From the IMG/VR virus record IMGVR_UViG_3300002038_000007: 64,000 nucleotides of DNA; one strand, given 5' to 3'. Source of the stretch: an uncultured virus (IMG/VR IMGVR_UViG_3300002038_000007). Taxonomy: Duplodnaviria; Heunggongvirae; Uroviricota; Caudoviricetes. This document shows, piece by piece, positions 401 through 23,346 of the stretch. A program made the translations under genes and the position numbers. Position 1 is the stretch's first letter. Each line of letters begins with the position of its first letter. The notes under the pieces were generated by a model. It worked only from the letters and a program-made list of their open reading frames with translations, did no database searches and was not told the origin of the DNA.

Positions 401-544
401 GACTTGCCTCAGTTTTGCAAAAGCAGCATCATATAATATACTATATTAAATCCCCGAGCTGATCAATAGATATTGATCTTGAAGCGAATACGGTGCTAAA
501 GCTTTGAGGAGCAAAGCACCCGCACCCGTCCAAGGGTGTGCTGC

Positions 545-2616: not shown

Positions 2617-2618
2617 CC

Positions 2619-2783
2619 ATGCCACAGCTTTTAATTGCTCCTGGCGTTCGTTTAAACACCAGCACGACAGCTCAAAAGGCTTTGCTGACAAGAGTGCCAT
2701 CGACAGGCGATGTTATTCTATACCCAGACGGCGACACCATTCTTTGGCCGGATGGCGACAAGATCAAATGGGATGAGTCCTGA
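2619..2783 (+). CDS. Small hypothetical protein, 54 aa
   Basis: ATG 2619 to TGA overlapping the next ATG; MPQLLIAPG...YPDGDTILWPDGDKIKWDES. Confidence 0.5.
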   Translation: MPQLLIAPGVRLNTSTTAQKALLTRVPSTGDVILYPDGDTILWPDGDKIKWDES

Positions 2784-4384: not shown

Positions 4385-4431
4385 AACGATGCCGAAAGGC
4401 CAATAACAAAGAAACGAGAGGCAACAAGAAT

Positions 4432-6771: not shown

Positions 6772-6910
6772 TGCAGCAACTCCGTCTTGCCGCTAATGGC
6801 TTTGTGGCGATGACCGCTAATGGCTTCGCCGCGGTCATGGATTTTTTCTTGCCAACACAATGGGCGGATAGCGCGGCGCCGTTCTGGGATGACGGAACGG
6901 GGTTTGATCA

Positions 6911-9747: not shown

Positions 9748-12700
9748 TGGGCCTCGCGCGCGCCACATCTAGCGGCCTCGTTGCCGGGCTGTCCGGCGCC
9801 GTAGCCGATGGTGATCCTGATCTGACTGTCGGATTGGTGACGTTCACCAATACCGCGGCTTCGGCTTCGGCTTCGGCTTCGACTGGGTTTGTGCGCTTCG
9901 GGCTCGCGTTCGAAGTCGGCAAGGTGCCAGCCGGCAATGTGCTCAAGGGCTTTGTTGGCAGCACCGAAGTTCGTCTCGCTGTCATGGGCACCAACACCTG
10001 GGCCAATGGCTCGCTGCGCAAGGCGACGGTGGTTGCTGATGTCGGTGCGGTGCCGGCCAACGGTAGTGTGACGCTCGACGTGCAGCGCCGCGGCGCGCCG
10101 GCCCAAGGATCGAGTGGTTTAGACCCGTTCGCCTATCTGACGTCGAACACAGATTTCAGGGTCGAGGTGACCAATCACAGCGGTTCGGCAAGTGGCACGC
10201 TGCCTGATCGCACCTACAGCCTGAATACGGCGCTCGCCACCACCACGCGGCGTGAGATCCTAGATGACACCCCGCTTTGTGTGCGGGCCTTCGCCTGGGG
10301 TCATCCTGCAGGCGAGAAGCACTTGATGTGCCTGCACTATGTCGACCTATGGCTCGATGCCGGAACTGTTGGTGTCGAATGGACGCCGGTTCTTAGCCAG
10401 CACTGGTGGATTGATGATCCGTTCGGTGATGGGGCGCAAACGAAAGAGCGGCGGGAATTCGACGTCGAAGCGCTGGATGCCACAGCCAGCCTATCTGCAC
10501 GAACCGACACCGGACTGACCTACAATACCCGTTTGGCAATGCTGCGTCTTGAGAACGACGCGCAACATGCTAAGCCGCTGTGGATCGATAAGGGCTCGGC
10601 CATGCCAACTCTGGCCCTGTCCTACAGCCTCGATACGCTAAAGCAAATGATGCGTGCCAAGTATCTGCCGCCATCTGCTCAGGGCATCACTTACGACACG
10701 TCGGGTCTGGCCAACACCTATATCCCCGGTGGCGAGCAAACAGGAACAGTCCGGCACAACCATCGCCGCGGGATTAACGGCCAAGGCGGCTATAACGCCC
10801 GTGGTGAAGTCGGATCGATGGACATCATGGCGTTGTCGACGCAGACGCCTGAACTATGGCGCATTGCGCGTGTATCAGCGCAAGCGGGCGGATTGGCTCC
10901 ATTCTTTTTTGCCGATCACCGTAACCTGGCAACGGGCAAGCTTACTGCTATGCCGTTCCCGGTTGAGCAGATCGGCGCGCAATCCTATCCAGGCCTAGGT
11001 GATGAGGTTGTCGCCGCGGTCCTAACCGGCAACTTTGGATATGACGCGCCGAATAACTCTAACAACACCAAGAACCTTGGACTCACCAGTTGGGATAGCG
11101 CGCATCATCACAATTATAGCTTCATGATGGCTTTCATTGAGGGCGACGCGCATCTTCAAGATTATGTTTTTCATGCTTTCGACGCGGGCATTCGTCGGAA
11201 CTCATACAGCACTTTCGGCATTCGTCCTCAATTAGAATTTGCGACGGTGGCGGCTCGTCGAACGGCCCTCGGCATCCCGACTTCTACAACTTATGGCGTG
11301 ACGCCCTATGACATTGCACAAGAGAGATCGTATGGCCTAGGCATGCTGTCGGTTGCCCGTTGGCTTCAGCTGATGCCGGATGATGATCCGCATGCGCCAT
11401 ATGTGCGAAATCTACTGGATCACGGCGACCGTCACATCAAGGACAGTTACGCCTTCTTTCCGAATGATCATCGAAGACAAGGTGGGTGGCGTCCTCGGTT
11501 CTCTAGATTTGGTACTGCGTTCATGAACTGCTTCAACGTTACCGGCGGGTATCTCTTGGACAGCATAGCCGACGATCTGGGTTTCGACGGCTACCGTCTT
11601 TTTGCAGATCAGTGCGCGCGGCTGTTGGCCCAAAGCGCCAGAAATCCTCATAGGCCTTTTGTCACGCGAGATATGAGGTATTCGGACAATGACCGGCTTG
11701 TCCATCTCCCGGTTGATGTTTTCCCTCAGCATCGGAGGTTTGTCTCTTCCGGAAACCAGATCACACGCACGACGTCGACGACGATACCAATCTTGGATGG
11801 TGATATTATTGTTGCTAGCGATGACAACGATCAAGGCGTAGCTATCGCTCTCCCGTCACCCCTTGTGGCTGGCACAGCCTACTACGTCGTGAATTCGGCA
11901 AACACGCCAGGCGGGCCTTTTCAGCTATCGGCCACGCCTGGCGGAACCCCTTTGACGGTGGCCGATCAAGCATCGTGGTTTGCTGGTATTGATCAAGCAG
12001 CGTTTGGCACTGAGCCGATATCGAGCGCCGGCATCATCAACCCGGATAGCACCCAGCAGATCGTCAACGCAACGATTGAGCGCATGTGGGCTTCTGGTTC
12101 GGTTGAACTTTCCGAAGCGCAGTATCAGGCATGGCAATCGTTTTATGCTGCGAGGGCGGCGAATTGGCCTGGGGAAGCGTTCGCCAGCTGGAACCTCGAC
12201 GGCGATTTAGTCAGATCGAATTTTGCAGCATTATCGCATAGCCCTTATGTCCCGGCTGGCCTCCAACTTGCCTTCAACGATGAATTCCAGACTCTTAGTG
12301 TCGAGGATGGTGACATCCCCACATCTGGCGCCAATTGGAATGATAAGTTTCTCCAGTTTGGCACAAGGCACTTGGCTGGCAACAACGATATCGGAATCAA
12401 GGGTTTTCCTGGATATGCTGGTTCTGGCGGACCAACGCTTGCACAGCATGGGCTTCCAACAATGGAGATCAACGCTGACGGCAATCTTCTGATGCAAGGT
12501 TGGGAGATCCCCACCGCGCTCAGGCCTCAGTTCTTCAACTTCCCTTATGTTGCGCCTCACATAGACAGCCGCAGGACCTGCAATTTTGATTACGGATATA
12601 TCGAATATCGGTTTCGGGCAATTGACCTCGGCGGCGGAAGTCATTGGTCGCTGTGGCTTTGGACCAGCGATGATAATGTCAATCATATGGAAATTGATGC

Positions 12701-13109
12701 TGTCGAAATCATTGGTTCCAACTCGTCATCGCCAGACGGCCCTATCCCCATTCTTTTCTTGAATTCTCATGACAATCGGCCGGGAGCTAATCACTCGGCA
12801 ACTTACCCTCAAGATTTCATCAATGTGACCGTGGCTGAGCTTTTTGACTGGCACACTTACGGCGTCGAAATCACACCGTCCGTTATCAATTGGACGATCG
12901 ATGGCGTCCAGCGTCGTACCATCCCCAATATCTACCCTGCCAATCAGCCATGGCATATCTTCGTTACGTTAGAGATGGGCGCTTCCCCGAATGGGGACTT
13001 TCCTGGCCCCGTTCGTCCAGGCACCCCGTTTCCAAACCGTGCTGAGCTTGATTATATTCGGGTTTATACAGCAGATGGCTCGCTGGTTCCGCCGCCACCA
13101 TTTCCATAG
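9747..13109 (+). CDS. Large virion-associated glycanase with C-terminal GH16 domain
   Basis: LAFNDEF...YGYIEYR...WSLWLW...EIDAVE (ExDxxE catalytic motif)...WHTYGVE...LDYIRVY. Confidence 0.8.
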   Translation: MGLARATSSGLVAGLSGAVADGDPDLTVGLVTFTNTAASASASASTGFVRFGLAFEVGKVPAGNVLKGFVGSTEVRLAVMGTNTWANGSLRKATVVADVGAVPANGSVTLDVQRRGAPAQGSSGLDPFAYLTSNTDFRVEVTNHSGSASGTLPDRTYSLNTALATTTRREILDDTPLCVRAFAWGHPAGEKHLMCLHYVDLWLDAGTVGVEWTPVLSQHWWIDDPFGDGAQTKERREFDVEALDATASLSARTDTGLTYNTRLAMLRLENDAQHAKPLWIDKGSAMPTLALSYSLDTLKQMMRAKYLPPSAQGITYDTSGLANTYIPGGEQTGTVRHNHRRGINGQGGYNARGEVGSMDIMALSTQTPELWRIARVSAQAGGLAPFFFADHRNLATGKLTAMPFPVEQIGAQSYPGLGDEVVAAVLTGNFGYDAPNNSNNTKNLGLTSWDSAHHHNYSFMMAFIEGDAHLQDYVFHAFDAGIRRNSYSTFGIRPQLEFATVAARRTALGIPTSTTYGVTPYDIAQERSYGLGMLSVARWLQLMPDDDPHAPYVRNLLDHGDRHIKDSYAFFPNDHRRQGGWRPRFSRFGTAFMNCFNVTGGYLLDSIADDLGFDGYRLFADQCARLLAQSARNPHRPFVTRDMRYSDNDRLVHLPVDVFPQHRRFVSSGNQITRTTSTTIPILDGDIIVASDDNDQGVAIALPSPLVAGTAYYVVNSANTPGGPFQLSATPGGTPLTVADQASWFAGIDQAAFGTEPISSAGIINPDSTQQIVNATIERMWASGSVELSEAQYQAWQSFYAARAANWPGEAFASWNLDGDLVRSNFAALSHSPYVPAGLQLAFNDEFQTLSVEDGDIPTSGANWNDKFLQFGTRHLAGNNDIGIKGFPGYAGSGGPTLAQHGLPTMEINADGNLLMQGWEIPTALRPQFFNFPYVAPHIDSRRTCNFDYGYIEYRFRAIDLGGGSHWSLWLWTSDDNVNHMEIDAVEIIGSNSSSPDGPIPILFLNSHDNRPGANHSATYPQDFINVTVAELFDWHTYGVEITPSVINWTIDGVQRRTIPNIYPANQPWHIFVTLEMGASPNGDFPGPVRPGTPFPNRAELDYIRVYTADGSLVPPPPFP

Positions 13110-13121
13110 GCTTCCTAAGCG

Positions 13122-13322
13122 TCAGCCTCTCTTCCCCCACCCCGCGGGAGGCACAGCTGATATTCGAGGCGGTTGGGGGTAGATCTGATCCCCCTTTCTG
13201 AGAAGGTCACACAAAAAGGCTATATCGGAGCGCATTTCACTGCGCTTTTTCACGTTGAACCAACGCTCTGCGTCGCGACCGTCTAGGCGGACAAAAACGG
13301 TCTTTTTACTTTCTTCCGACAT
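13122..13322 (-). CDS. Small RHH-like DNA-binding protein
   Basis: MSEESKKTVFVRLDGRDAERW...SDIAFLCDLL; divergent from the next fibre gene. Confidence 0.5.
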   Translation of the reverse strand: MSEESKKTVFVRLDGRDAERWFNVKKRSEMRSDIAFLCDLLRKGDQIYPQPPRISAVPPAGWGKRG

Positions 13323-13432
13323 GCTAGCTAAATTATAGCAAAATGCTATTAAGCTCAATATTTTAGGGCTCAATTCACACCCAAAATCGCGGACACTCGG
13401 GCACAAATCCATCACAGTCGCGGAAATGACCC

Positions 13433-16400
13433 ATGCCCGTCTCATTGCCAGCCGCCTTTGTTGCCCAAACAACCACAGCAACTGACTTCGCCGATCCTGT
13501 TTTCCTGACGCCAGGGAAGTATCGGGTCGACGATTTATCGGCGATGGCGAACGGTGTTGAAAATCCGCCGGCTGGTGGCGGTGATTTGCTTGTTACATGG
13601 GAAAAAGTTGACACGCTGAGTTGGACGCTTGAAGCGGAACAGACGGGCCAGGAGTGGAAGCAGGGCGTCCCTACAGCGCCAGTTTCTTATGGCGGATGGA
13701 CCGAGACCGCTGACCGGGGGTTTTCCCGCGCATTCACCGGGACGTCCATCTTAGGGGCAACAGCGGTTGATGTAGCAGCGATCCATGCTCAGCTTTCGAG
13801 TTACGGCGACGAGGTTGCTGATTTTGCCACGATCACCGATGCAGAGCCTGGGGTCGCCGGCCCAGGCTATGTTCGCTCTTATGAAGTGCCCGCCAATTCG
13901 GGGCGTTATTATCGTGAGATTTTTGAAGCTGCGACCGGTGCATTCTTTAGCAACCATTGGGATGGTGCGGCGTGGGGCGGATGGCAGGGCGGCGCGGCAG
14001 TTGCCATCACCAACGAAAACTGGATTCTATCGCTAGGTGAAGCACTCACCGGACAGAACGTGCATGGACAATCAGACGGGCCGGCTGTCGTCAACTTCAG
14101 CCGAACGATCGTCCCTCCCTTAAGCGGAACTGCAGATTTCGAACTTACCTTTGGCGCCAATAGCATCGTGCCAGGCGCTTTAGATGTCGGCACCATCCTC
14201 ATTGGAACAATGCCCGGTGCTTCGGACGTTTTTGATAGCTCGGCTCTTGGGGTCAATCTCAGCTCTGCCCTGCTTGAGCGAACCGAGCCAATTACCCTTA
14301 ACCCTGGCTTCCCGCATTTCGTTACTATGGGGTCAGGCCCGGATGGATCAATCATCGATCCTTACTTTTCAGTTCGAGAGGCAAGCAATCCAGAATGGGC
14401 AGCCAGCGTCATCCCAGAGGTGACCGAAACGGTGGTTGGTTCCGTCGCCGGAAGCGATGGCCCCCAGACCTTCACCGCGACGTTCACGCCTGATGTCGAC
14501 GGGGTCTATCCATTCTCTATCGGCGCGAAACCAGGTTCGCTCACCACAAATCTTGCCATACGACTGGGCACTGCCACGGCGAACGCGAGCATCCTTGACG
14601 GGTTTACTGACCTCTCTCTTCGTCTGACAAATGCGGACCCCGTTCGAACATTCCCGGTCCAGCTCGTCGGTGGCACCGAATATATTGTCGGGTATCAACC
14701 CGGCAACGCTGGGTCGACGGCAGAGGATGTCTTCTTCTCGCTCCGGCCGATCAGTGTGGTGAGCATCAATGCTTCCGGCTTCCCTACTCCTGGTGACGAA
14801 AATAGCCTTGGCATCAACAGCGCTGACAACCTGCAAACTCTGGTCGAAAAGGCCGAAAACTACGTCGATTGGGCACCTAGCGTAGCCCCTGAGGTGACCG
14901 AAACCCTTGTTCCCGATTTCCTAGGCTCAACTGCTGTTCCATTTACGGCCACGTTTACGGCCGACGAAACCGGATACTATATCGCCGAGCATCGCGCACT
15001 CGCTGTTAACCCAAACGCCTACATTCAGATCGGCACGACACTCGGCGGCACGGATCTTCTGGACACCATCCCTTCTACAGCTGATAGGCTATTTCCTACT
15101 GAACTCACGAAATTTTATCGAATCTTTATGAGAAAAGGCCAGACCGCTTTTGCCCAAACGGCTCCAGGAGGCGCTGGAACCGCCCAAGGGATGGGCTTTT
15201 CGATCCGGCCGATTTCCAGAGGAAATGAATACACCCCAACGCATGCTATTCCGCTGCTGGGCAACTACTCGATCGATCTCCGAGTCGGTAATGAGCACAA
15301 TGAAGGATCGATCGATATTGCTGAGCCGGGCGTCACCATTGAAACGGGGCATGATCTTCTCAGCGCTGACACACTCCACATAGTAGTAACGGATATAAAT
15401 CAGCCTGGTAAACCTTGGGATATCATCGAAATTCCAATCCCTGAATTTCTCGCCAAAGGCGAGTCATTTGGGCATGTTTATGGTACCGGATATATCGAAG
15501 TTTTTGTTGGTAACGCTGCTACTGGTCAAATCCTCTTTGAGGACGAGAATCGCAACCTGACCTATGAGCGCTCATGGGTAACCAAGCGAACGTTGGTTGG
15601 CACCAGCGGCATTAGTCCGCGCGTTGGTGAGATAGTTCCCGTAGCCGCAGTCGGGTTCAAAACCCCAGCGCAAGGCTACCTTCCTTGGAAAGATGGCAGA
15701 GTGGTCAATGGCGCGGTTGACTACCCTGTGTTTGCCTCAATGGTGCCGTGGTGGGTGGATGGCGATGACCTCTTATTTGAGGGCACAGTTGATGGTGCGT
15801 ACATCCGGAATCTTGGCGGCAATGCAGGGCCGGAAGGTACATTCCAAGGTCAGGCTACGGCGGTCAATGGGCTGTCTGCAACCTATCGTCGTCCAAACAA
15901 CCCCACACCTTCCCAAGTTAATGGCGGCGGCGGCAATATGGTGCGGGGGAACACCAATCAGCCGGTCCCGATTACAGGCGACACCGAAACGCGGCCTGAC
16001 AGCTACGCCTTTCAACACTATGTGATTGTTGACACATATCGCGAGACTGCCGGCGCCGGGGCGGCATCTATCACCCCAGCTCATGGTCGAATGGAGCTGA
16101 CTAACAACCAAGCCATTGCGGCATCCATCCAAGCCATCACGATGAACACCGGAGGCGGTAGCGATCGGGGCGTCTACCCGTTTGATACGGTCACGGTCGC
16201 CAAAGGCGGCATGGTCGTTACACCTGGCGGATTCGTCGATAATGACGCAACGACGCAGGTCATGGATGGCACGAACACAACAAGCTCTATGGTGGTGCCG
16301 CGCCCTGGTGATTATGAATTCAAAATCGCTGTTCCATCAGCTCTCGATAGCACGATCGAGAGCGACGATCGGCCCCTTGCGGCGATCTCGGTCAACGGGT

Positions 16401-16924
16401 CGATCGTCAAAGTTTATAACATCCACGATCTTGCAAACAGTTCTAGCAGCGCCGATCAAGACAAGGTGATCAGCGACATCATTACCTTGCCGGCAAACGC
16501 GCTTGTTCAGGCTGGCTACTACATCGAAGGCGGCGACGATGAAGCTTGGGGCTACAGGGACCCGCTTGAAACGATACCGCCTGATAGTGCAACGGTAGTC
16601 TATGGATATTTCGAGCTTCGGCAGCTGCCAGAATCCGTGACGCCTTTGACTACATCCACAGGTCATGAACCGCCTCATATTCAATCTTTCGACACCACAA
16701 CGGACTGGGGCACGGCAGCGGGTGGTTTCTACACAATCACCGTCCCAGCCGCCACGCACGGCAAGACCGCGCCCTCGACCATTCAGTTCTGGCAAGACAT
16801 TGCTGGCGTTCTGGGGCTAACTCAGGTCGACACTGTGCGGCGCCAAGCTAATGGCGATGTCGAGTTCTCTGTACCTGATTCGCCCGATGCCCGGTTTGCC
16901 GGTGAAGTGTCGATTGGAGACTGA
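13433..16924 (+). CDS. Long tail fibre protein with collar-like region
   Basis: 1163 aa; VGEIVP...GYLP..DG...YP.F...GAYIRN...GTFQ...ETRP collar signature; internal repeat WAxSVxPEVTET. Confidence 0.75.
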   Translation: MPVSLPAAFVAQTTTATDFADPVFLTPGKYRVDDLSAMANGVENPPAGGGDLLVTWEKVDTLSWTLEAEQTGQEWKQGVPTAPVSYGGWTETADRGFSRAFTGTSILGATAVDVAAIHAQLSSYGDEVADFATITDAEPGVAGPGYVRSYEVPANSGRYYREIFEAATGAFFSNHWDGAAWGGWQGGAAVAITNENWILSLGEALTGQNVHGQSDGPAVVNFSRTIVPPLSGTADFELTFGANSIVPGALDVGTILIGTMPGASDVFDSSALGVNLSSALLERTEPITLNPGFPHFVTMGSGPDGSIIDPYFSVREASNPEWAASVIPEVTETVVGSVAGSDGPQTFTATFTPDVDGVYPFSIGAKPGSLTTNLAIRLGTATANASILDGFTDLSLRLTNADPVRTFPVQLVGGTEYIVGYQPGNAGSTAEDVFFSLRPISVVSINASGFPTPGDENSLGINSADNLQTLVEKAENYVDWAPSVAPEVTETLVPDFLGSTAVPFTATFTADETGYYIAEHRALAVNPNAYIQIGTTLGGTDLLDTIPSTADRLFPTELTKFYRIFMRKGQTAFAQTAPGGAGTAQGMGFSIRPISRGNEYTPTHAIPLLGNYSIDLRVGNEHNEGSIDIAEPGVTIETGHDLLSADTLHIVVTDINQPGKPWDIIEIPIPEFLAKGESFGHVYGTGYIEVFVGNAATGQILFEDENRNLTYERSWVTKRTLVGTSGISPRVGEIVPVAAVGFKTPAQGYLPWKDGRVVNGAVDYPVFASMVPWWVDGDDLLFEGTVDGAYIRNLGGNAGPEGTFQGQATAVNGLSATYRRPNNPTPSQVNGGGGNMVRGNTNQPVPITGDTETRPDSYAFQHYVIVDTYRETAGAGAASITPAHGRMELTNNQAIAASIQAITMNTGGGSDRGVYPFDTVTVAKGGMVVTPGGFVDNDATTQVMDGTNTTSSMVVPRPGDYEFKIAVPSALDSTIESDDRPLAAISVNGSIVKVYNIHDLANSSSSADQDKVISDIITLPANALVQAGYYIEGGDDEAWGYRDPLETIPPDSATVVYGYFELRQLPESVTPLTTSTGHEPPHIQSFDTTTDWGTAAGGFYTITVPAATHGKTAPSTIQFWQDIAGVLGLTQVDTVRRQANGDVEFSVPDSPDARFAGEVSIGD

Positions 16925-16926
16925 CC

Positions 16927-17148
16927 GTGGAAGTTAAGGGAACCGTCGAGACTGATCGGATTCAACTAAAACCAATGACTCAAGCTCAGCGTAATGCTCT
17001 GCCAAATCAGCGGGAAGGCGATGTGGTTTTTGTTGCCGATGGAGCGGGCAGTAAGCTGAGTACGCATGATGGGGCGGGGTTCACTGAGCCCGGGCCTACG
17101 GGGCAAGACTTCCAGCAAAACCAATCCAATGATCACGGCTTTTTTTAG
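16927..17148 (+). CDS. Small fibre-associated protein
   Basis: MTQAQRNAL...EGDVVF motif typical of fibre shoulder domains. Confidence 0.5.
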   Translation: MEVKGTVETDRIQLKPMTQAQRNALPNQREGDVVFVADGAGSKLSTHDGAGFTEPGPTGQDFQQNQSNDHGFF

Positions 17149-17157
17149 GAGTTGACT

Positions 17158-17907
17158 ATGGCTAACGAACTGCAACTGAAGCGCCGTATTTCTGGATCTG
17201 CTGGAGCTCCCCCCGCTCTTAAATCTGGCGAGCCTTCGGTCAATATGGTCGATGAGATCGTTTACATTGGCTTTGGTGATGATGGGGCAGGCGCGGCGAC
17301 ATCGATTGTCGCGATTGCCGGTCCTGGCGCCTATGTGGATAAGGTCAGTGGCCAAACGATCTCAGGCATCAAAGTTTTCTCAGTCCCGCCGACCGTACCA
17401 TCGCCTGTTGGCCCGAATGACGCCGTTAACAAAGCCTACGCAGATTCATTGGCAGGCACCGGGTTTACTGCAGGCAGCGGCATTGATGCAGCCCAGCTAA
17501 CATCTATGGTCATTCAAGCCGATGCCACCATCGCTCGCTTGGCTGACCCAATCTTTTCTGGAACCCCTACAGCACCTACCGCAACTACCGGCACCAACAC
17601 CACTCAGCTAGCAACAACTGCATTCGTTGCCGCGGCTGTAGCAGATTTGATCGGATCGGCCCCAGGGGCACTCGATACACTGGAAGAATTCGCAACTGCC
17701 TTGCAGAACAACCCGGATCAAATCACCGATATTCTGACTGCACAGGCGGGAAAGCTGACAGCATCCAGCAATTTATCCGATGTCGTAGACGCGGTTGTGG
17801 CGCGGGGCAACCTTGGGCTTGGCAGCATGGCCGTTCAGGATGCTGGGGCGGTAGCTATCACTGGCGGCACGATCGATAATGTGGTGATTGATGGAGGAAC
17901 GTTTTGA
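17158..17907 (+). CDS. Tail fibre protein (Mtd/hyaluronidase-type N-terminus)
   Basis: LQLKRR...PPALKSGEP...YIG; PTAPTATTGTNTTQLATTAFV; APGALDTLEE; NLSDV...ARGNLGLG; AGGAG RBS. Confidence 0.8.
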   Translation: MANELQLKRRISGSAGAPPALKSGEPSVNMVDEIVYIGFGDDGAGAATSIVAIAGPGAYVDKVSGQTISGIKVFSVPPTVPSPVGPNDAVNKAYADSLAGTGFTAGSGIDAAQLTSMVIQADATIARLADPIFSGTPTAPTATTGTNTTQLATTAFVAAAVADLIGSAPGALDTLEEFATALQNNPDQITDILTAQAGKLTASSNLSDVVDAVVARGNLGLGSMAVQDAGAVAITGGTIDNVVIDGGTF

Positions 17908-17910
17908 TCG

Positions 17911-18534
17911 ATGGCTGTCTCGCTGCGTATAAAAAAGTCGACAACAGCTGGCAATGTTCCGGCTTCACTTGATATCGGTGAAATCGCCGTTAACGAAGCT
18001 GATGAGCTGTTGTTCTATCGAGACAGTGCGGGTGAGGTTCAAGCGCATGATCTCGCTCCTCGATTTTACATCCCCATTTCCGGTCGAATTTACCTGCAAA
18101 CCAATGAGTATAACGGGTTTTCAGCTCTAGGGCCTTATGTTCAGAATCACAATAATGATCTTGGCAATGCGAATGCTGCATTCAATCCCAATCGCAATGC
18201 AACTGGGTTTTCTTTCCCACACAACATGACGGTGGAGCGTCTTTATGGGGACTTTCGAAACAACAATGTTGGCGCCCCTGCCTGGTCATTTGTCGTTTGG
18301 AAGCAGCTCAAAACCGAAGATAGCACTGTGGTCACAAATACGGTGCTATGGCAAGATTCAGATGACTTTCGAAACTATGCCGACAATTTACCGCACAAGA
18401 TCGATCAGACTATCGACCAACCATTAGCGGCGGGTGAAATGTTATCGCTCGCAGTGAGAGCTGCGATAAACAACAACACTGAATATGTCTACCCTCTTTC
18501 ACTGAGTTTTGTTTTAAAACGGGACTTTAGCTGA
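17911..18534 (+). CDS. Fibre/receptor-binding protein (Mtd-type N-terminus)
   Basis: IKKSTTAGNVPASLDIGEIAVNEADELLFY. Confidence 0.65.
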   Translation: MAVSLRIKKSTTAGNVPASLDIGEIAVNEADELLFYRDSAGEVQAHDLAPRFYIPISGRIYLQTNEYNGFSALGPYVQNHNNDLGNANAAFNPNRNATGFSFPHNMTVERLYGDFRNNNVGAPAWSFVVWKQLKTEDSTVVTNTVLWQDSDDFRNYADNLPHKIDQTIDQPLAAGEMLSLAVRAAINNNTEYVYPLSLSFVLKRDFS

Positions 18535-19022
18535 TGAACGCTCGCCAACTGAAGGACAAGCTTCGCCGTGACATTCGCGACGAGATTCTTGCGATTGATC
18601 CTGACGCTGAGATTACCGATGTTGCCATTGTGTACTGGCAGGATATTGATTGGCGAAGCCATATCAATGGCATTTATTCGGCGATCGATCGGCGCTATGT
18701 AGACACAATGTCAGCTCGCACGATTAAGGCGATGCATCAGCGCATCGATGCTTTGGTAAGCGCCTATAGAGCTGATAAAGAGAACGTACTGGTTGATGAG
18801 ACAGATTACCGTGGTTTAACCATCTACCTCGACCGGGAGGGCGAAGGAGCGGGCGCCATTCAGCCCCAAGGCGGGAGCCCTATTGCTCTCGATGAGGCTT
18901 TTGACGCGGTCTATGAGCTCCTTGATGTGCAGGCGCGAAAGATAGAATCTATGCAACAAGAGCTGAACCGATTCAAGGTGGCTGCTCAGCAGTTAGCGTT
19001 GTCGCTGTCGGAACCGGGTTGA
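18534..19022 (+). CDS. Hypothetical protein with C-terminal coiled coil
   Basis: Coupled 162-aa ORF ending the structural operon. Confidence 0.55.
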   Translation: MNARQLKDKLRRDIRDEILAIDPDAEITDVAIVYWQDIDWRSHINGIYSAIDRRYVDTMSARTIKAMHQRIDALVSAYRADKENVLVDETDYRGLTIYLDREGEGAGAIQPQGGSPIALDEAFDAVYELLDVQARKIESMQQELNRFKVAAQQLALSLSEPG

Positions 19023-19048
19023 CGCATCGTCTCTGGCTCCATTATGGT
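19019..19048 (+). promoter_or_regulatory. Sigma70-type promoter, tRNA module 1
   Basis: TTGACG (19019-24), 18 nt, TATGGT (19043-48); leader ATG 7 nt downstream, so probably a leaderless transcript. Confidence 0.65.
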
Positions 19049-19054
19049 GAGCCA

Positions 19055-19126
19055 ATGATCACTAGCCGCACGTCTTTGTTACGACTCCTGACCGGACCAA
19101 CTTTCGGATCGGAGACTCGCGACTAG
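19055..19126 (+). CDS. Leu-sensing attenuator leader peptide MITSRTSLLRLLTGPTFGSETRD
   Basis: TTG TTA CGA CTC CTG at 19076-90, followed by antiterminator, terminator and three tRNA-Leu genes. Confidence 0.8.
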   Translation: MITSRTSLLRLLTGPTFGSETRD

Positions 19127-19153
19127 TTTTCTAGAACATCGTTGAGCAGGGCA

Positions 19154-19179
19154 GCCTCCGATCTTTCGGGGGCTTTTTT
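19154..19179 (+). terminator. Intrinsic terminator (attenuator 1)
   Basis: GCCTCCGA-TCTT-TCGGGGGC-TTTTTT. Confidence 0.85.
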
Positions 19180-19185
19180 GTGTTG

Positions 19186-19262
19186 GCTGGAGTAGCCCAA
19201 TTGGCAGAGGCACTGGTTTTAGGCACCAGTCAGTGTCGGTTCGAATCCGACCTCCAGTACCA
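19186..19262 (+). tRNA. tRNA-Leu(TAG), short variable loop
   Basis: Cloverleaf; CTGGT-TTTAGGC-ACCAG; encoded CCA. Confidence 0.9.
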
Positions 19263-19339
19263 GCCCAACTGGCGCAATTGGCAGACGCGGCAAGCTTAAA
19301 CCTTGTCTGTTCTCGGTTCGATCCCGAGGTTGGGCACCA
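19263..19339 (+). tRNA. tRNA-Leu(TAA), short variable loop
   Basis: GCAAG-CTTAAAC-CTTGT; CCA. Confidence 0.9.
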
Positions 19340-19340
19340 T

Positions 19341-19417
19341 GCCGAGGTGACGCAATTGGTAGACGTGCTGGCCTCAAAAACCAGATGGTGAGGGTTCGAC
19401 TCCCTCCCTCGGCACCA
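19341..19417 (+). tRNA. tRNA-Leu(CAA), short variable loop
   Basis: CTGGC-CTCAAAA-ACCAG; CCA. Confidence 0.9.
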
Positions 19418-19423
19418 ATCTTC

Positions 19424-19453
19424 TTGACATGATAAATTCCGTCACTCTATATT
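19424..19453 (+). promoter_or_regulatory. Sigma70-type promoter, tRNA module 2
   Basis: TTGACA (19424-29), 18 nt, TATATT (19448-53). Confidence 0.75.
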
Positions 19454-19458
19454 TCCGA

Positions 19459-19534
19459 CGTGCTGTGGAGCAGTGGCTAGCTCGTCAGGCTCATAACCTG
19501 AAGGTCGTCGGTTCGAGTCCGACCAGCGCAACCA
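19459..19534 (+). tRNA. Initiator tRNA-fMet(CAT)
   Basis: C1:A72 mismatch; TCAGG-CTCATAA-CCTGA; CCA. Confidence 0.9.
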
Positions 19535-19551
19535 ACATGAGGTGTATCGAC

Positions 19552-19617
19552 GTGAACGCAATCTACTATTCGTGCTCATGGTTTAGTTCCGAAAAGGGGC
19601 TGCTGACGCACGTGTAA
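19552..19617 (+). CDS. Tyr/Ser/Cys/Trp/Phe-sensing leader peptide MNAIYYSCSWFSSEKGLLTHV
   Basis: GAGGTG RBS then GTG (in-frame ATG also at 19537); nine consecutive control codons TAC TAT TCG TGC TCA TGG TTT AGT TCC. Confidence 0.85.
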   Translation: MNAIYYSCSWFSSEKGLLTHV

Positions 19618-19647
19618 ACGCTTGATCACCATACACCGGCAGTCAGA

Positions 19648-19681
19648 GGTCCCCTCGGAGAAATCCCTGGGGGCCTTTTTT
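19648..19681 (+). terminator. Intrinsic terminator (attenuator 2)
   Basis: GGTCCCC-TCGGAGAAATCCCT-GGGGGCC-TTTTTT. Confidence 0.85.
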
Positions 19682-19689
19682 GTGTCAAC

Positions 19690-19764
19690 GCCTCTGTAGC
19701 TGAGAAGGATTAGCGCCGGTTTGAAGAACCGGAGAGGGCGGCTCGATACCGTCTGGGGGCACCA
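19690..19764 (+). tRNA. tRNA-Phe(GAA)
   Basis: CCGGT-TTGAAGA-ACCGG; CCA. Confidence 0.88.
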
Positions 19765-19784
19765 AACAAGGAGAGTAAAGCGAA

Positions 19785-19857
19785 GGGTAGGAGCCAGGGC
19801 AGTGGGCACGGTCTGTAAAACCGACGCCAGAGGGTTCGAGACCTTCCCTACCCACCA
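19785..19857 (+). tRNA. tRNA-Tyr(GTA), short variable loop
   Basis: CGGT-CTGTAAA-ACCG; acceptor GGGTAGG/CCTACCC; CCA. Confidence 0.85.
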
Positions 19858-19858
19858 T

Positions 19859-19932
19859 GCGGGATTCGTCTAATGGCAAGACAGCGGTCTCCAAAACCGA
19901 CAATGGAGGTTCGATTTCTCCATCCCGTGCCA
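19859..19932 (+). tRNA. tRNA-Trp(CCA)
   Basis: CGGT-CTCCAAA-ACCG; G73 CCA. Confidence 0.9.
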
Positions 19933-19938
19933 AATTAA

Positions 19939-20024
19939 GGATGGTTGGCAGAGTGGTAATGCAGCGCCCTGCTAAGGCGTACAAGGGCAACCTTGCGTTG
20001 GTTCGATCCCAACACCATCCGCCA
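19939..20024 (+). tRNA. tRNA-Ser(GCT)
   Basis: GCGCC-CTGCTAA-GGCGT; long variable arm; CCA. Confidence 0.92.
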
Positions 20025-20025
20025 T

Positions 20026-20101
20026 GATCCGGTAACGCAGAGGCCGACGTGCCTGGCTGCAAACCAGGAATACGCCGGTTCGACTCCGGCCCGGATCTCC
20101 A
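20026..20101 (+). tRNA. tRNA-Cys(GCA)
   Basis: CCTGG-CTGCAAA-CCAGG; U73 CCA. Confidence 0.9.
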
Positions 20102-20102
20102 A

Positions 20103-20189
20103 GGAGGAGAGGTGTATTGGCGGCATAACCGGTCCTGAAAACCGTCCGACCGCAAGGTCGTGTGGGTTCGATTCCCACCTCCTCCGCCA
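20103..20189 (+). tRNA. tRNA-Ser(TGA)
   Basis: CGGT-CCTGAAA-ACCG (C at position 33); long variable arm; CCA. Confidence 0.85.
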
Positions 20190-20199
20190 ACATTTTTGA

Positions 20200-20229
20200 T
20201 TGACAGTCTTATCAACTTATGCGTAACAG
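20200..20229 (+). promoter_or_regulatory. Probable promoter, tRNA module 3
   Basis: TTGACA at 20200-05 within imperfect palindrome TTGACAGTCTTATCAA; weak -10 (TAACAG). Confidence 0.55.
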
Positions 20230-20243
20230 TCATTATCTCTCTC

Positions 20244-20381
20244 ATGGCGAGACCAGCGATGACTATATTTTGCACACGAACAGTCGTCACAATAATCGGG
20301 CAGACCAGCGTCGTCCGTACCAATAAACGCGCCATGACGATGAAGACCATTCGAAATATCCGGCGACATAGACGCGGCTAA
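20244..20381 (+). CDS. Arg/His/Lys/Met/Thr/Ile/Val/Asn-rich leader peptide, 45 aa
   Basis: MARPAMTIFCTRTVVTIIGQTSVVRTNKRAMTMKTIRNIRRHRRG; 35 of 45 residues match the downstream tRNA set. Confidence 0.75.
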   Translation: MARPAMTIFCTRTVVTIIGQTSVVRTNKRAMTMKTIRNIRRHRRG

Positions 20382-20389
20382 TCAACTAG

Positions 20390-20465
20390 CTCCGCGTCGC
20401 CAACTGGACAGGCAGCCAGTCTTCTAAACTGGTTTGTGTGGGTTCGAATCCCGCCGCGGAGTCCA
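20390..20465 (+). tRNA. tRNA-Arg(TCT)
   Basis: CCAGT-CTTCTAA-ACTGG; CCA. Confidence 0.9.
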
Positions 20466-20466
20466 T

Positions 20467-20543
20467 GGTGGCCGTAGCTTAGTGGTAAAAGCGCTGGATT
20501 GTGACTCCAGAGATCGTCGGTTCAAATCCGATCGGCCACCCCA
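20467..20543 (+). tRNA. tRNA-His(GTG) with G-1:C73
   Basis: CTGGA-TTGTGAC-TCCAG; G-GTGGCCG/CGGCCAC-C-CCA. Confidence 0.92.
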
Positions 20544-20549
20544 ATCACC

Positions 20550-20625
20550 CCGCTCGTAGCTCAACAGGAAGAGTCGATGAGTCCTAATCATCAGGTTGCA
20601 AGTTCGAGTCCTGCCGGGAGCCCCA
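20550..20625 (+). tRNA. tRNA-Arg(CCT), acceptor stem defective (possible pseudogene)
   Basis: GATGA-GTCCTAA-TCATC; 5' strand GCTCG versus 3' CGGGAGC looks like a 2-nt deletion. Confidence 0.65.
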
Positions 20626-20630
20626 ATCAT

Positions 20631-20706
20631 GCCCATGTAGCTCAACTGGATGAGCAGCGGTCTACGAAGCCGCGTGATGGAGGTTCGAGTCCTCTCATGG
20701 GCTCCA
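20631..20706 (+). tRNA. tRNA-Arg(ACG)
   Basis: GCGGT-CTACGAA-GCCGC; CCA. Confidence 0.9.
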
Positions 20707-20747
20707 TCCACGAAACACGTCCACGAAAAGATCAATTCGTGGATATC

Positions 20748-20821
20748 GGGCCACAAGCATAGTGGCGATGCGTCGGCCTCTTAACCCGATGAGCACAGTT
20801 CAATTCTGTGGTGGCCTTCCA
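20748..20821 (+). tRNA. tRNA-Lys(CTT)
   Basis: TCGGC-CTCTTAA-CCCGA; CCA. Confidence 0.85.
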
Positions 20822-20846
20822 GAAAGGAGAATGTGACGTTTAATGA

Positions 20847-20920
20847 TCCTGCGTAGCTCAATGGTAGAGCGGGTCGCTCATAACGATTTGACGGTGGTTC
20901 GATTCCACCCGCAGGTACCA
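20847..20920 (+). tRNA. tRNA-Met or Ile2 (CAT)
   Basis: GGTCG-CTCATAA-CGATT; CCA; Met versus Ile2 not resolvable by eye. Confidence 0.85.
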
Positions 20921-20921
20921 C

Positions 20922-20998
20922 GCCCTCGTAACTCAGTGGTCAGAGTAGCTGTTTTGTAATCAGCCGGTCGCGGGTTCGAATCCTCGCCGAGGGCTCCA
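20922..20998 (+). tRNA. tRNA-Thr(TGT)
   Basis: GCTGT-TTTGTAA-TCAGC; CCA. Confidence 0.9.
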
Positions 20999-21001
20999 TT
21001 T

Positions 21002-21075
21002 GCTGGCGTAGCTCAATAGTAGAGCATTCGGCTGATAACCGGACGACGGTGGGGCAGAACCATCCGCCAGTACCA
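21002..21075 (+). tRNA. tRNA-Ile(GAT)
   Basis: TTCGG-CTGATAA-CCGGA; atypical T-loop GGCAGAA; CCA. Confidence 0.85.
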
Positions 21076-21076
21076 T

Positions 21077-21154
21077 AGAAGGGTAGCTCAGCCTGGCCAG
21101 AGCTGCGGTGTTACATACCGCGAGTCGTCGGTTCGAATCCGGCCCCTTCTACCA
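21077..21154 (+). tRNA. tRNA-Val(TAC)
   Basis: GCGGT-GTTACAT-ACCGC; CCA. Confidence 0.9.
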
Positions 21155-21156
21155 GT

Positions 21157-21234
21157 TCCAGGCTGGGGGAATGGTAGACCCGGCTGGCTGTTAACCAGCG
21201 TCTTTTCTCGGTTCGAGTCCGAGGCCTGGAGCCA
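21157..21234 (+). tRNA. tRNA-Asn(GTT)
   Basis: GCTGG-CTGTTAA-CCAGC; CCA. Confidence 0.9.
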
Positions 21235-21247
21235 ATTTTTCTGATGA

Positions 21248-21323
21248 GGGTGTGGGGCCGCACGGCGACGGCAAGATCCTTTTAAGTTCTAGGCAGCAGG
21301 TTCGACTCCTGTCACACCCTCCA
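21248..21323 (+). tRNA. tRNA-Lys(TTT)
   Basis: AGATC-CTTTTAA-GTTCT; acceptor GGGTGTG/CACACCC; CCA. Confidence 0.85.
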
Positions 21324-21603
21324 ATGCTCGGCACATGAGGATGACACGGCGCGACGGTTTTCTTCTGCCGTTGACGAGACGTTCGATGTAGTCTGGGGAG
21401 TAACCTAGAAGTTCGCCGACAGGCGCATAATCGCTTTTGATGCCGGGATGACCTGTGTCGTAATTATGTTCTAAAAACCATTCTCGAAAATTGAATTGCT
21501 CTGGACCGCCCGGTTCCTCGCCGGGCTCGATATCGTCGTATGCCCCACCGGGTCGCCCGCTCGGCTGTTCGGTAGGGTTGGTCGCGGCTGGTTGCGGTTG
21601 CAT
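21289..21603 (-). CDS. XRE-type HTH protein with Gln/Pro/Ala/Glu/Gly/Asp-rich N-terminus (putative autorepressor of tRNA module 4)
   Basis: AAGGA RBS; VGELLGYSPDYIERLVNGRRKPS HTH; last gene of the minus-strand tRNA operon. Confidence 0.8.
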   Translation of the reverse strand: MQPQPAATNPTEQPSGRPGGAYDDIEPGEEPGGPEQFNFREWFLEHNYDTGHPGIKSDYAPVGELLGYSPDYIERLVNGRRKPSRRVILMCRALEGVTGVEPAA

Positions 21604-21622
21604 GACGGTTTCCTTCGAGGGT

Positions 21623-21699
21623 TGGCAGGTCGGGCGGGATTCGAACCCACGATCCTGAATTCAAAGTCCAGAGCATTAGGCCAACTATGCTACCGACCA
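21623..21699 (-). tRNA. tRNA-Gln(TTG)
   Basis: Reverse complement: CTGGA-CTTTGAA-TTCAG; CCA. Confidence 0.9.
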
Positions 21700-21711
21700 G
21701 CAAGAGGGGAT

Positions 21712-21786
21712 TGGCAGCCGCACTAGGACTTGAACCTAGAACATCCACATTCAGAGTGTGGCGCTCTACCATTGAGCTATACGGCA
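21712..21786 (-). tRNA. tRNA-Gln(CTG)
   Basis: CCACA-CTCTGAA-TGTGG; CCA. Confidence 0.9.
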
Positions 21787-21796
21787 TTACCAAGAA

Positions 21797-21870
21797 TGGA
21801 GCGGGAGACGGGAATCGAACCCGTGTCATCAGTTTGGAAGACTGCGGCTCTACCATTGAGCTACACCCGC
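21797..21870 (-). tRNA. tRNA-Gly(TCC)
   Basis: CAGT-CTTCCAA-ACTG; GCGGG acceptor, U73 CCA. Confidence 0.92.
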
Positions 21871-21923
21871 TTAGCTTCCGCCGCCTCCTGAGTAGCTGCC
21901 CCATATGATAAGGCGGCGGAATT

Positions 21924-22001
21924 TGGAGCTGCTGACCGGATTCGAACCGGCATTTTCCAGAGTGAAAATCTGGAGTCCTAGTCCTGTTAGACGACAGCAG
22001 C
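21924..22001 (-). tRNA. tRNA-Glu(TTC)
   Basis: CCAGA-TTTTCAC-TCTGG; CCA. Confidence 0.9.
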
Positions 22002-22006
22002 AAAAC

Positions 22007-22082
22007 TGGCGAGCGTAAGGGGATTCGAACCCCTGTTGTCGGATAGACAATCCGAAGTCCTAGGCCTCTGGACGATACGCCC
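22007..22082 (-). tRNA. tRNA-Asp(GTC)
   Basis: TCGGA-TTGTCTA-TCCGA; CCA. Confidence 0.9.
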
Positions 22083-22087
22083 GTTGT

Positions 22088-22163
22088 TGGAACCGCCAAC
22101 CGGATTTGAACCGGTGTTTTCAGGTTGAGAACCTGATGTCCTTGACCGCTAGACGATGGCGAT
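22088..22163 (-). tRNA. tRNA-Glu(CTC)
   Basis: TCAGG-TTCTCAA-CCTGA; CCA. Confidence 0.9.
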
Positions 22164-22164
22164 T

Positions 22165-22240
22165 TGGTCAGGGTGGCTGGCACTGCCCCAGCGACCCCCT
22201 GCTTCCAAGGCAGGTACTCTGCTAGCTGAGCTACACCCTG
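22165..22240 (-). tRNA. tRNA-Pro(TGG)
   Basis: CCTGC-CTTGGAA-GCAGG; atypical T-loop GGCAGTG; CCA. Confidence 0.88.
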
Positions 22241-22241
22241 T

Positions 22242-22316
22242 TGGTGGATCTGGCAGGATTCGAACCCGCAACCTTCGCTGTGCAAAAGCGCTGCTCTCCC
22301 GTTGAGCTACAAACCC
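22242..22316 (-). tRNA. tRNA-Ala(TGC)
   Basis: CGCT-TTTGCAC-AGCG; G3:U70; CCA. Confidence 0.92.
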
Positions 22317-22329
22317 GATGATGTGGAGA

Positions 22330-22358
22330 TACTTAACGGACAAAATCCGTTAAGTCAA
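22330..22358 (-). promoter_or_regulatory. Promoter of tRNA module 4 with overlapping palindromic operator
   Basis: Minus strand TTGACT, 17 nt, TAAGTA; perfect inverted repeat ACTTAACGGA-N5-TCCGTTAAGT (22331-55) spans it. Confidence 0.8.
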
Positions 22359-22381
22359 TTATGGAATGATCGGCTGGTGAT

Positions 22382-22630
22382 CTAAGTATCTAGCTCTATC
22401 GTCACCATCATACCTTCAATCGGCAGGATCACAGGCGGGCTCTTAGGCACACGCCACAGCGCGCCCCTGCTATTCAAAATGAACCAGAACCCATCGACGA
22501 ATTTGTAGGTGGTGCCATCGCGGCATGGTGGCTTTGGGAGAGGCGTTGGGGGCGATGCGAGCGACGCGGCGCAGACTGGTATGGATGCGAAACCGATGGG
22601 AGCGGATCGAAGGAAGTCTCGACGGTTCAT
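22382..22630 (-). CDS. Small hypothetical protein with Tat-like N-terminus
   Basis: MNRRDFLR; ATGA overlap with upstream gene. Confidence 0.5.
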   Translation of the reverse strand: MNRRDFLRSAPIGFASIPVCAASLASPPTPLPKPPCRDGTTYKFVDGFWFILNSRGALWRVPKSPPVILPIEGMMVTIELDT

Positions 22631-23346
22631 GGGCTGTTATTAAAACAGTAAATGCATCGGTCTAATCCAATGGCGATCTCTAACACAGCAACGTCTTTGT
22701 TTTTTATTTGCGTAGGAAAGTCGGTTCGCTTTGAAATGGAGCACAGCTCCATCCACTTTTCGCCATTGTTGACTTCGACGTCCATTGTCAAGGTCGAGTA
22801 AGAGGGCAGCCGGTCGGATTCAATAATCCTTGTTGGCAATCCAAGGGCTTGATGAAACATCGCCTCAGCGTGTGGCCAAAATGACCCGTGGTAGTCATTT
22901 CCGCTATCGGCAGAGTAAGCACATTGAAATTCGAGCTGGTAGAATTCCTTCAGTCTCATATGCTTCACGGGCTGGATTTGCTCTCGTCGGAAGGACTTCC
23001 CGTATTGCCAGCAGCAGTATGGCAAACGGACTTTGTCATGTGACTCTAGTCGCTGCATCATATGAGCATAAGACGACGCGGTTGTTTCGGGGCGAAGGAT
23101 TAACCAGTGATCATGCTCGTCGGCGACGCGTTGATCAAAGACATCGGTCTCTGCGTCATAGGCGTCAGACAACAAGTTGACCGGCATAAGCAATGGTGCT
23201 TCGATTTGTTCAAATGACCATGCCTGATTCATGCCTAACAGGCGATCACGAACTGATATCGAAAAGAAGTCGATCAACCAGTTTCTGGTCTTGATGTCCT
23301 TCTCTGACCATGTCACCAGCCCGTTGATATCGAAAGTATTATCCAT
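22627..23346 (-). CDS. Class II aminoacyl-tRNA synthetase catalytic core (GlyRS alpha2-like), no anticodon-binding domain
   Basis: LRPETT, motif 2 QYGKSFRRE...RLKEFYQLEFQ, motif 3 LEIAIGLDR; only 239 aa. Confidence 0.85.
   Translation of the reverse strand: MDNTFDINGLVTWSEKDIKTRNWLIDFFSISVRDRLLGMNQAWSFEQIEAPLLMPVNLLSDAYDAETDVFDQRVADEHDHWLILRPETTASSYAHMMQRLESHDKVRLPYCCWQYGKSFRREQIQPVKHMRLKEFYQLEFQCAYSADSGNDYHGSFWPHAEAMFHQALGLPTRIIESDRLPSYSTLTMDVEVNNGEKWMELCSISKRTDFPTQIKNKDVAVLEIAIGLDRCIYCFNNSP

Follow-up and report, generated by a model that had tools for sequence, protein, structure and literature searches.

Why does a short open reading frame (ORF) with clustered leucine codons, followed by a strong intrinsic terminator, stand directly in front of three tRNA-Leu genes of a phage? 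The question is raised by positions 19055-19417, + strand, of a 64,000-nucleotide (nt) stretch of an uncultured tailed phage (IMG/VR record IMGVR_UViG_3300002038_000007); this whole stretch is called the window below. A preliminary description of the DNA had read the locus, here module 1, as a leucine attenuator that controls tRNA genes rather than biosynthetic enzymes. Our analysis points in the same direction: module 1 is probably a ribosome-mediated (leader-peptide) transcription attenuator gating the three phage tRNA-Leu genes. The case for module 1 rests on its context, which is formed by two further modules of the same tRNA array and by two unrelated loci, L024 and L099.

The leader ORF of module 1 (L1) was found as described earlier, running on the + strand from an ATG at 19055 to a TAG stop at 19124-19126, with 23 codons plus the stop (MITSRTSLLRLLTGPTFGSETRD). 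Four of the five codons in the stretch TTG TTA CGA CTC CTG (19076-19090) encode leucine, namely TTG at 19076, TTA at 19079, CTC at 19085 and CTG at 19088, with CGA between them. The tRNA-Leu trio downstream (block 1, 19186-19417, + strand) was recovered by both ARAGORN and Rfam and consists of Leu(TAG) at 19186-19262, Leu(TAA) at 19263-19339 and Leu(CAA) at 19341-19417, with Rfam scores of 57.5, 50.0 and 58.2 bits, respectively. All three anticodons are matched by a cognate codon inside the cluster: TTG for Leu(CAA), TTA for Leu(TAA) and, for Leu(TAG), CTG but strictly not CTC. By the standard wobble rules, the anticodons of the block itself read three of the four leucine codons of the cluster.

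Upstream of the ATG, a promoter-like site TTGACG-18-TATGGT (19019-19048, + strand, 9 of 12 matches) would place the transcript start at about the A of the start codon. L1 is possibly translated from a leaderless start, to judge from this weak 9/12 match; six such sites occur in 6 kb where 4.2 are expected, which makes it a weak signal. The frame of L1 is also opened by a TTG at 19019 (ORF 19019-19126). This TTG overlaps the stop codon, TGA, of the preceding gene, which encodes a 162-amino-acid protein (TTGA, 19019-19022). Because of this overlap, translation of L1 could instead be coupled to the late operon.

The terminator (19153-19185, + strand) consists of a stem-loop at 19153-19174 with nine pairs, six of them G-C, and a tetraloop, followed by TTTTTT (U-run 19174-19179) and then GTGTTG. 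It ranks first among 28 terminator-like sites in bases 1-20000; the third-ranked site is placed likewise, about 10 nt before a tRNA-Phe gene. The U-tailed terminator of the preliminary description thus stands, and its distance of 7 nt to the tRNAs was corrected: with the last U of the run at 19179 and the first base of tRNA-Leu(TAG) at 19186, the tRNA is separated from the U-run by 6 nt and from the stem by 11 nt. No promoter-like site was seen in 19127-19185, and the same holds for the interval between the terminator of module 2 and its tRNAs. Since there is no such site between terminator and tRNAs, the tRNA-Leu trio can be transcribed only through the terminator.

The 5' arm of this terminator (region 3, 19153-19164) has an alternative partner in the leader. 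The sequence GATCGGAG at 19107-19114 is the exact 8-nt reverse complement of CTCCGATC at 19156-19163, and in the folds the resulting antiterminator extends to nine pairs (19106-19114 with 19156-19164) plus inner helices. The strand involved, region 2 (19103-19116), can pair either with the terminator 5' arm or with region 1 (19072-19096), the anti-antiterminator strand, which overlaps the leucine codons. In nascent RNA prefixes ending at 19116-19124, the minimum free energy (MFE) structure pairs CTCCTGACCGGA (19085-19096) with 19103-19114. This pairing is superseded by a longer leader hairpin, in which GUCUUUG (19072-19078, holding the TTG codon) pairs with CGGAGAC (19110-19116), together with outer stems. 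In free nascent RNA (19055-19165), the 1:2 structure is the MFE at -26.9 kcal/mol and holds region 2, compared to -23.8 kcal/mol for the forced antiterminator.

To represent the ribosome, positions were masked up to 13 nt past a leucine codon in the A site, or around the stop codon, with the footprint size being assumed. With stall masks at TTA or CTG and nascent RNA to 19165, the MFE structure becomes the antiterminator, at -20.3 and -20.0 kcal/mol, respectively, against -15.6 kcal/mol for the core terminator hairpin and -17.9 kcal/mol for its extended form. Region 2 stays accessible while a leucine codon occupies the A site (mask to about 19101); with the ribosome at the stop codon (mask 19109-19137), region 2 is covered and the antiterminator cannot form. 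Antiterminator and terminator cannot coexist, and in nascent RNA the two compete energetically. The exact complement, the alternative pairing over the leucine codons and the 1:2 / 2:3 / 3:4 layout put forward in the preliminary description are all borne out by these masked and prefix folds, and its proposed comparison of masked with unmasked RNA yielded competitive alternatives.

From these elements we infer that L1 is translated, that ribosomes stall in it, and in which direction the system responds. Transcripts carrying the 23-codon ORF would either start at the weak promoter at 19019 or arrive by readthrough from the late structural operon. If the leucine codons are read fast, the ribosome would arrive at the stop codon and cover region 2, allowing the terminator to form and halting RNA polymerase 6 nt before the first tRNA. 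If charged tRNA for UUG, UUA or CUN is scarce, the ribosome would stall at 19076-19090, so that region 2 (19106-19114) could pair with the 5' arm (19156-19164), block the terminator and let the tRNA-Leu trio be transcribed. Without translation, region 1 would hold region 2 and termination would be the default. The net effect would be negative feedback on leucine-codon decoding capacity, in which the sensed quantity would be decoding by charged tRNA-Leu and not leucine as such. The trigger would be either a mismatch with host codon usage or a loss of host tRNA.

Matching between a leader and the tRNAs behind it recurs in the same array, and module 2 is statistically far stronger than module 1. 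It begins 2 nt past an initiator-like tRNA-Met gene with the leader ORF MRCIDVNAIYYSCSWFSSEKGLLTHV (19537-19617, + strand), which contains the run YYSCSWFSS at 19564-19590. These nine codons form the longest run of F, Y, W, S and C codons in the six frames of the window (the next have 8 and 7), and a run of this kind was reached by only one of 5000 shuffles. The tRNAs that follow (block 2, 19690-20189, + strand, ARAGORN and Rfam) are Phe(GAA), Tyr(GTA), Trp(CCA), Ser(GCT), Cys(GCA) and Ser(TGA), whose anticodons read eight of the nine run codons under standard wobble rules. A switch was found here as well (19587-19681, + strand). Its antiterminator (19587-19609 with 19638-19660, -31.0 kcal/mol) was matched by 3 of 1000 shuffles, and its terminator (19645-19678 plus U-run, -22.2 kcal/mol) lies about 10 nt before the Phe-Tyr-Trp-Ser-Cys-Ser block. 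The antiterminator starts where the codon run ends and also forms in untranslated RNA; therefore, termination in module 2 would need a ribosome reading through the leader. The antiterminator is lost if the ribosome stalls at the final codons of this run (mask to 19601). The possibility that modules 1 and 2 are paralogues was rejected, as they have only the terminator 3' half (GGGGGC..TTTTTTGTGT) in common.

In module 3, the leader ORF MTIFCTRTVVTIIGQTSVVRTNKRAMTMKTIRNIRRHRRG (20259-20381, + strand) has a further in-frame ATG at 20244 and spans 40 to 45 codons depending on the start. Thirty-two of its 39 codons, including Val codons, belong to the amino-acid set of the block behind it. The frame ending at 20381 reads MTMKTIRNIRRHRRG, with a 14-codon run MTMKTIRNIRRHRR in front of Arg-His-Arg-Arg-Lys-Met-Thr-Ile-Val-Asn-Lys. 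These tRNAs (block 3, 20390-21323, + strand) are Arg(TCT), His, Arg(CCT), Arg(ACG), Lys(CTT), Met(CAT), Thr(TGT), Ile(GAT), Val(TAC), Asn(GTT) and Lys(TTT), and assuming the same wobble rules their anticodons read 12 of the 14 run codons. The run is the longest of R, H, K, M, T, I, V and N codons in the six frames of the window (the next has 11) and was reached by 7 of 5000 shuffles. No terminator was seen after the leader ORF, which stops 8 nt before tRNA-Arg, and the leader folds in an ordinary way (z -1.19). Two contig variants of this leader (20250-20377) were present in the probable source sequencing run, with 0 and 8 differing letters in 128 nt, which is strain variation inside the leader.

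Codon-matched leaders were also searched for outside this phage. A survey based on codon runs covered 313 tRNA blocks, taken from the window and from 90 unrelated viral loci that had been fetched with a tRNA D-loop pattern. Modules 2 and 3 ranked first and second, and at E < 0.01 four sense blocks were found compared to none among antisense controls; one of the four, a 'GRGRG' match in L075, was rejected because it lies inside a real 43-amino-acid gene. A survey based on whole ORFs, covering 289 distinct tRNA blocks, gave six sense hits at a corrected P < 0.001, together with one antisense and one swapped-set control. In L024 (IMGVR_UViG_3300032397_000002, 2078-2226), the remaining hit of the run-based survey, a promoter-like site TTGACA-17-TAATCT is followed by a 35-codon ORF (MVTRFSALLRLSSLRLPVCLSSYPASFSPSSYPSL) with 25 of 34 codons in F/L/P/S/Y, ending 4 nt before a Tyr-Phe-Pro-Leu-Leu-Leu-Ser-Ser block. 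A metagenome set of 30 loci (38 blocks), none of them related to the window, was obtained with a triple Leu D-loop pattern in metagenome_contigs.

The locus L099 (JAEEGL015453048.1, 880-3800), a member of this metagenome set, has five mini-ORFs led by Shine-Dalgarno sequences, each rich in the amino acid or amino acids of the tRNAs that follow. They are MKGDYYYYIDYY before Tyr-Tyr-Glu, MKSRFRSGF before Phe, MKMRIPNIR before Ile-Thr, one reading MLLRLRLSKLQLNIL... before five tRNA-Leu, and MKRKQKQYFKPK before Lys-Lys. Their stop codons lie 3-6 nt from the tRNA start, and no terminators were seen at the mini-ORFs of L024 and L099. The pattern of a codon-matched leader is thus rare but recurrent, with a leucine-specific case outside this phage, and it is not universal.

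Relatives of the locus itself were sought in several collections. Searches of INPHARED with megablast and blastn gave no close relative and only generic tRNA matches (1 record, then 478, none covering at least 80% of the query). The flanking proteins had no relative in viral_contigs, and the upstream 162-amino-acid protein found only itself among 5.8 billion proteins. DNA patterns of leader 2 and of the Arg-His tRNA junction matched nothing in viral_contigs or genome_contigs, and the 73-amino-acid frame over leader 3 had no homologue. The 62-amino-acid frame over tRNA-Met plus leader 2 gave 121 protein matches and was discarded, since all nine that were inspected were spurious ORFs over tRNA-Met genes. 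A relative was present in sequencing runs X2-X4, among four runs compared, with one piece over 19534-19679 (15 other letters, 6 gaps) and one over 20235-20632 (43 other letters, 14 gaps). Its leader 2 has at least 8 differences, those listed all at or after 19603, and one of them keeps the stop codon (TAA to TGA). Leader 1 is covered by none of the pieces listed for this relative.

Several observations weigh against an attenuator in module 1. Taken alone, the module is only modestly above chance, a borderline case. In dinucleotide shuffles of the 130-nt leader, counting any + frame, at least four leucines in five codons were reached by 241 of 5000, and the + strand of the whole window has 18 five-codon stretches with at least four leucines. 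The leucine content of L1 as a whole is 4/22 (P=0.13), and the module is outside the top 30 of the ORF-based survey. An antiterminator of at least this stability that takes up the terminator arm to the same extent arose in 36 of 1000 shuffles, or 77 of 1000 by energy alone. Two of the four leucine codons (CTC CTG) lie in a strand required by the structure, and for this reason the codon evidence and the structural evidence are not independent. No Shine-Dalgarno sequence precedes the L1 ATG, and the promoter-like site is a 9/12 match; of the 34 long ORFs of the window, only 19 have a Shine-Dalgarno-like 4-mer. At full length, the terminator state is strongly favoured (-42.6 versus -30.2 kcal/mol); therefore, any switch must be kinetic, as is also the case in the trp attenuator. 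No homologous leader was found in the databases named above. Codon-matched leaders were found in none of three cultured phage arrays (Rhizobium B1VFA, Roseobacter DSS3P8 and Aeromonas TSW001). Module 3, L024 and the L099 mini-ORFs have no terminator, so codon matching alone does not imply an attenuator mechanism. Finally, the module 1 terminator could simply end the upstream operon, the last gene of which stops at 19022.

This last point leads to a first rival explanation, in which an ordinary terminator of the + strand structural operon is followed by tRNA-Leu genes that owe their expression to constitutive leak-through or to a phage promoter not recognised as such, and the leucine cluster and the 8-nt complement are there by chance. 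The borderline statistics of module 1 agree with this, as does the position of the terminator, 130 nt past the end of an 18-kb block of co-directional genes. A GC-rich arm also readily finds partners in GC-rich sequence, and 234 of 1000 shuffles pair as many arm bases. However, the end of a gene does not explain the second strong terminator within the array, which lies about 10 nt before tRNA-Phe and behind a leader matched at 1/5000. Moreover, neither terminator is followed by a promoter-like site, and the unrelated L099 also has a leucine-rich ORF before five tRNA-Leu genes. We therefore consider an ordinary terminator unlikely.

A different view keeps the leader ORFs translated and sensing tRNAs but lets them act mainly through the processing or stability of the tRNA precursor or through Rho-dependent termination, with the module 1 terminator being secondary. 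It would fit the modules in which the first tRNA follows the stop codon directly and no terminator intervenes, i.e., module 3 (8 nt), L024 (4 nt) and four L099 mini-ORFs (3-6 nt). Because these ORFs end just before a tRNA and have no terminator, a terminator-free mechanism must exist there, or the ORFs do something else. For module 1 we regard such a mechanism as quite improbable, since modules 1 and 2 both have strong terminators, competing antiterminators and the right geometry, and since the leader fold of module 3 is not unusual. One form that this coupling might take, in which the 3' end of the leader sequesters the 5' strand of the first tRNA, failed in the terminator-less modules: in seven of seven cases the pairing was no better than in shuffles, of which 26 to 191 of 300 equalled or exceeded it. 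Direct, translation-independent binding of tRNA-Leu by a T-box-like or other RNA element would likewise go with anticodon-matching triplets upstream of a terminator/antiterminator pair, and yet it has hardly any likelihood. A cmscan of 18500-22500 against Rfam, at E values up to 1, detected no Leu_leader, Trp_leader, His_leader, Thr_leader or T-box and no significant family beyond tRNA-type ones, the other matches being at chance level. In addition, the codons lie in one ATG-to-stop frame, and module 2 has an in-frame run of 9 and module 3 one of 14, which a specifier loop does not need.

Leader-peptide attenuation remains the reading that we prefer for module 1, and a wider version of it can be proposed tentatively, although we find it rather doubtful. 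The separately gated + strand blocks, each behind a test ORF written in the amino acids of that block, might together act as a sensor of decoding capacity that is resolved by codon family. It would detect scarce or destroyed host tRNAs, e.g., those attacked by anti-phage anticodon nucleases, and switch on the matching replacements. The terminator-less versions would then represent a second coupling route.

The window belongs to a divergent tailed phage, with PHROG matches including primase/helicase, exonuclease, terminase and tail proteins; its + strand structural genes form the 18-kb co-directional block that ends at 19022. ARAGORN found 26 tRNA genes in the array, and Rfam added three that are read as Tyr(GTA), Ile(GAT) and Pro(TGG), of which tRNA-Tyr(GTA) was also confirmed by ARAGORN at a lower threshold. 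The total of 29 genes covers all 20 amino acids. Those on the + strand form three blocks, separated by gaps of 130-200 nt, and a fourth block is on the minus strand (Ala...Gln), where a promoter-like site is present and a leader ORF was not found.

Some of these tRNAs have unusual features. The three tRNA-Leu genes (each 77 nt) and tRNA-Tyr (19785-19857, 73 nt) have short variable loops, where bacterial tRNAs for Leu and Tyr usually have a long variable arm; many unrelated phage arrays also contain tRNA-Leu genes of 74-77 nt. The genes for tRNA-Ile(GAT) (21002-21075, + strand) and tRNA-Pro(TGG) (22165-22240, minus strand) were missed by ARAGORN even at a lowered threshold, with Rfam scores of 52.3 and 48.7 bits, and have the T-loops GGCAGAA and GGCAGTG, respectively. 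The tRNA-Met(CAT) gene has a C1.A72 mismatch, the hallmark of bacterial initiator tRNAs, so the phage may encode its own initiator tRNA. Directly upstream of the gene is the sigma-70-like promoter match that scores best in the first 20 kb (TTGACA-18-TATATT, 19424-19453, 11 of 12 matches), and site and gene together occupy 19424-19534 on the + strand.

Adjoining the array is a gene for a class II aminoacyl-tRNA-synthetase-like protein of 239 amino acids (22627-23346, minus strand, PF00587), which has the core domain only. With 'aminoacyl-tRNA ligase-related' proteins from Rhizobium, Devosia and Mesorhizobium it shares about 55% identity, and for this reason the host is probably one of the Hyphomicrobiales. 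Since its 1778 homologues are mostly cellular, from Hyphomicrobiales, the protein is useless as a phage marker.

If the attenuator reading of module 1 is correct, a form of control that is textbook knowledge for genes making or charging amino acids would here act on the tRNAs themselves, so that a feedback loop would close directly on decoding. Such control would also account for how phages with large arrays are spared the production of dozens of unneeded tRNAs. The role of phage tRNAs is debated between codon compensation and escape from tRNA-cleaving defences (PMC10264068, PMC11555353). An attenuator with tRNA output would respond to either cause, codon mismatch or a tRNA-cleaving defence. 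That tRNA loss can be the trigger in a related short-ORF system is suggested by a result of Barth et al. from 2021 (cited in PMC10264068), in which cleavage of tRNA-Cys by VapC4 reportedly engages small ORFs. The leaders are short and self-contained, and their codon content predicts which tRNAs they would control.

How does module 1 compare with known systems? The enterobacterial leader-peptide attenuators leuL, trpL, hisL, thrL and pheL control amino-acid operons. Module 1 resembles them in having a short ORF with clustered codons, 1:2, 2:3 and 3:4 helices and a terminator just before the regulated genes, with the ribosome position presumably being decisive here as well. It differs in being phage-borne and possibly leaderless, in lacking an Rfam leader match, and in its output of tRNA genes instead of biosynthetic enzymes. 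For pheL, leader-peptide attenuation is treated in PMC3082878. The usual output of such systems consists of genes for biosynthesis, transport or aminoacyl-tRNA synthetases, and downstream of L1 there are three tRNA-Leu genes. The ilvGMEDA and thr leaders are multivalent, i.e., several amino acids are sensed by one leader. Modules 2 and 3 are similar in mixing codons for five and eight amino acids, but the amino-acid list of the phage leaders equals the list of downstream tRNA genes and does not reflect a shared biosynthetic pathway. In the pheST attenuator, Phe codons control phenylalanyl-tRNA synthetase. This is likewise leader-peptide attenuation of a component of the translation apparatus, with a protein enzyme as its output where the phage has tRNAs. 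A T-box binds uncharged tRNA directly and needs no translation. The phage leader would share with it the sensing of tRNA status and the choice between terminator and antiterminator, but would sense via translation.

A literature search, supplementary files excluded, gave no account of leader-peptide attenuation of tRNA genes, and the terms leader, attenuat-, terminator and promoter are absent from the main text of an eLife paper on phage tRNAs. Leaderless poly-Cys short ORFs of mycobacteria are reported to act as attenuators (10.1101/834739). In these ORFs, as proposed for the phage leaders, a codon run senses one charged tRNA and controls the downstream genes, and the possible leaderless start of L1 would be a further similarity. 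They regulate protein-coding operons in a cellular organism, whereas the genes concerned here are phage tRNAs. The mycobacterial leaderless Cys-codon ORFs are the nearest published analogue that we found. Module 1 is thus probably a known mechanism with tRNA as its output, a combination that appears to be new.

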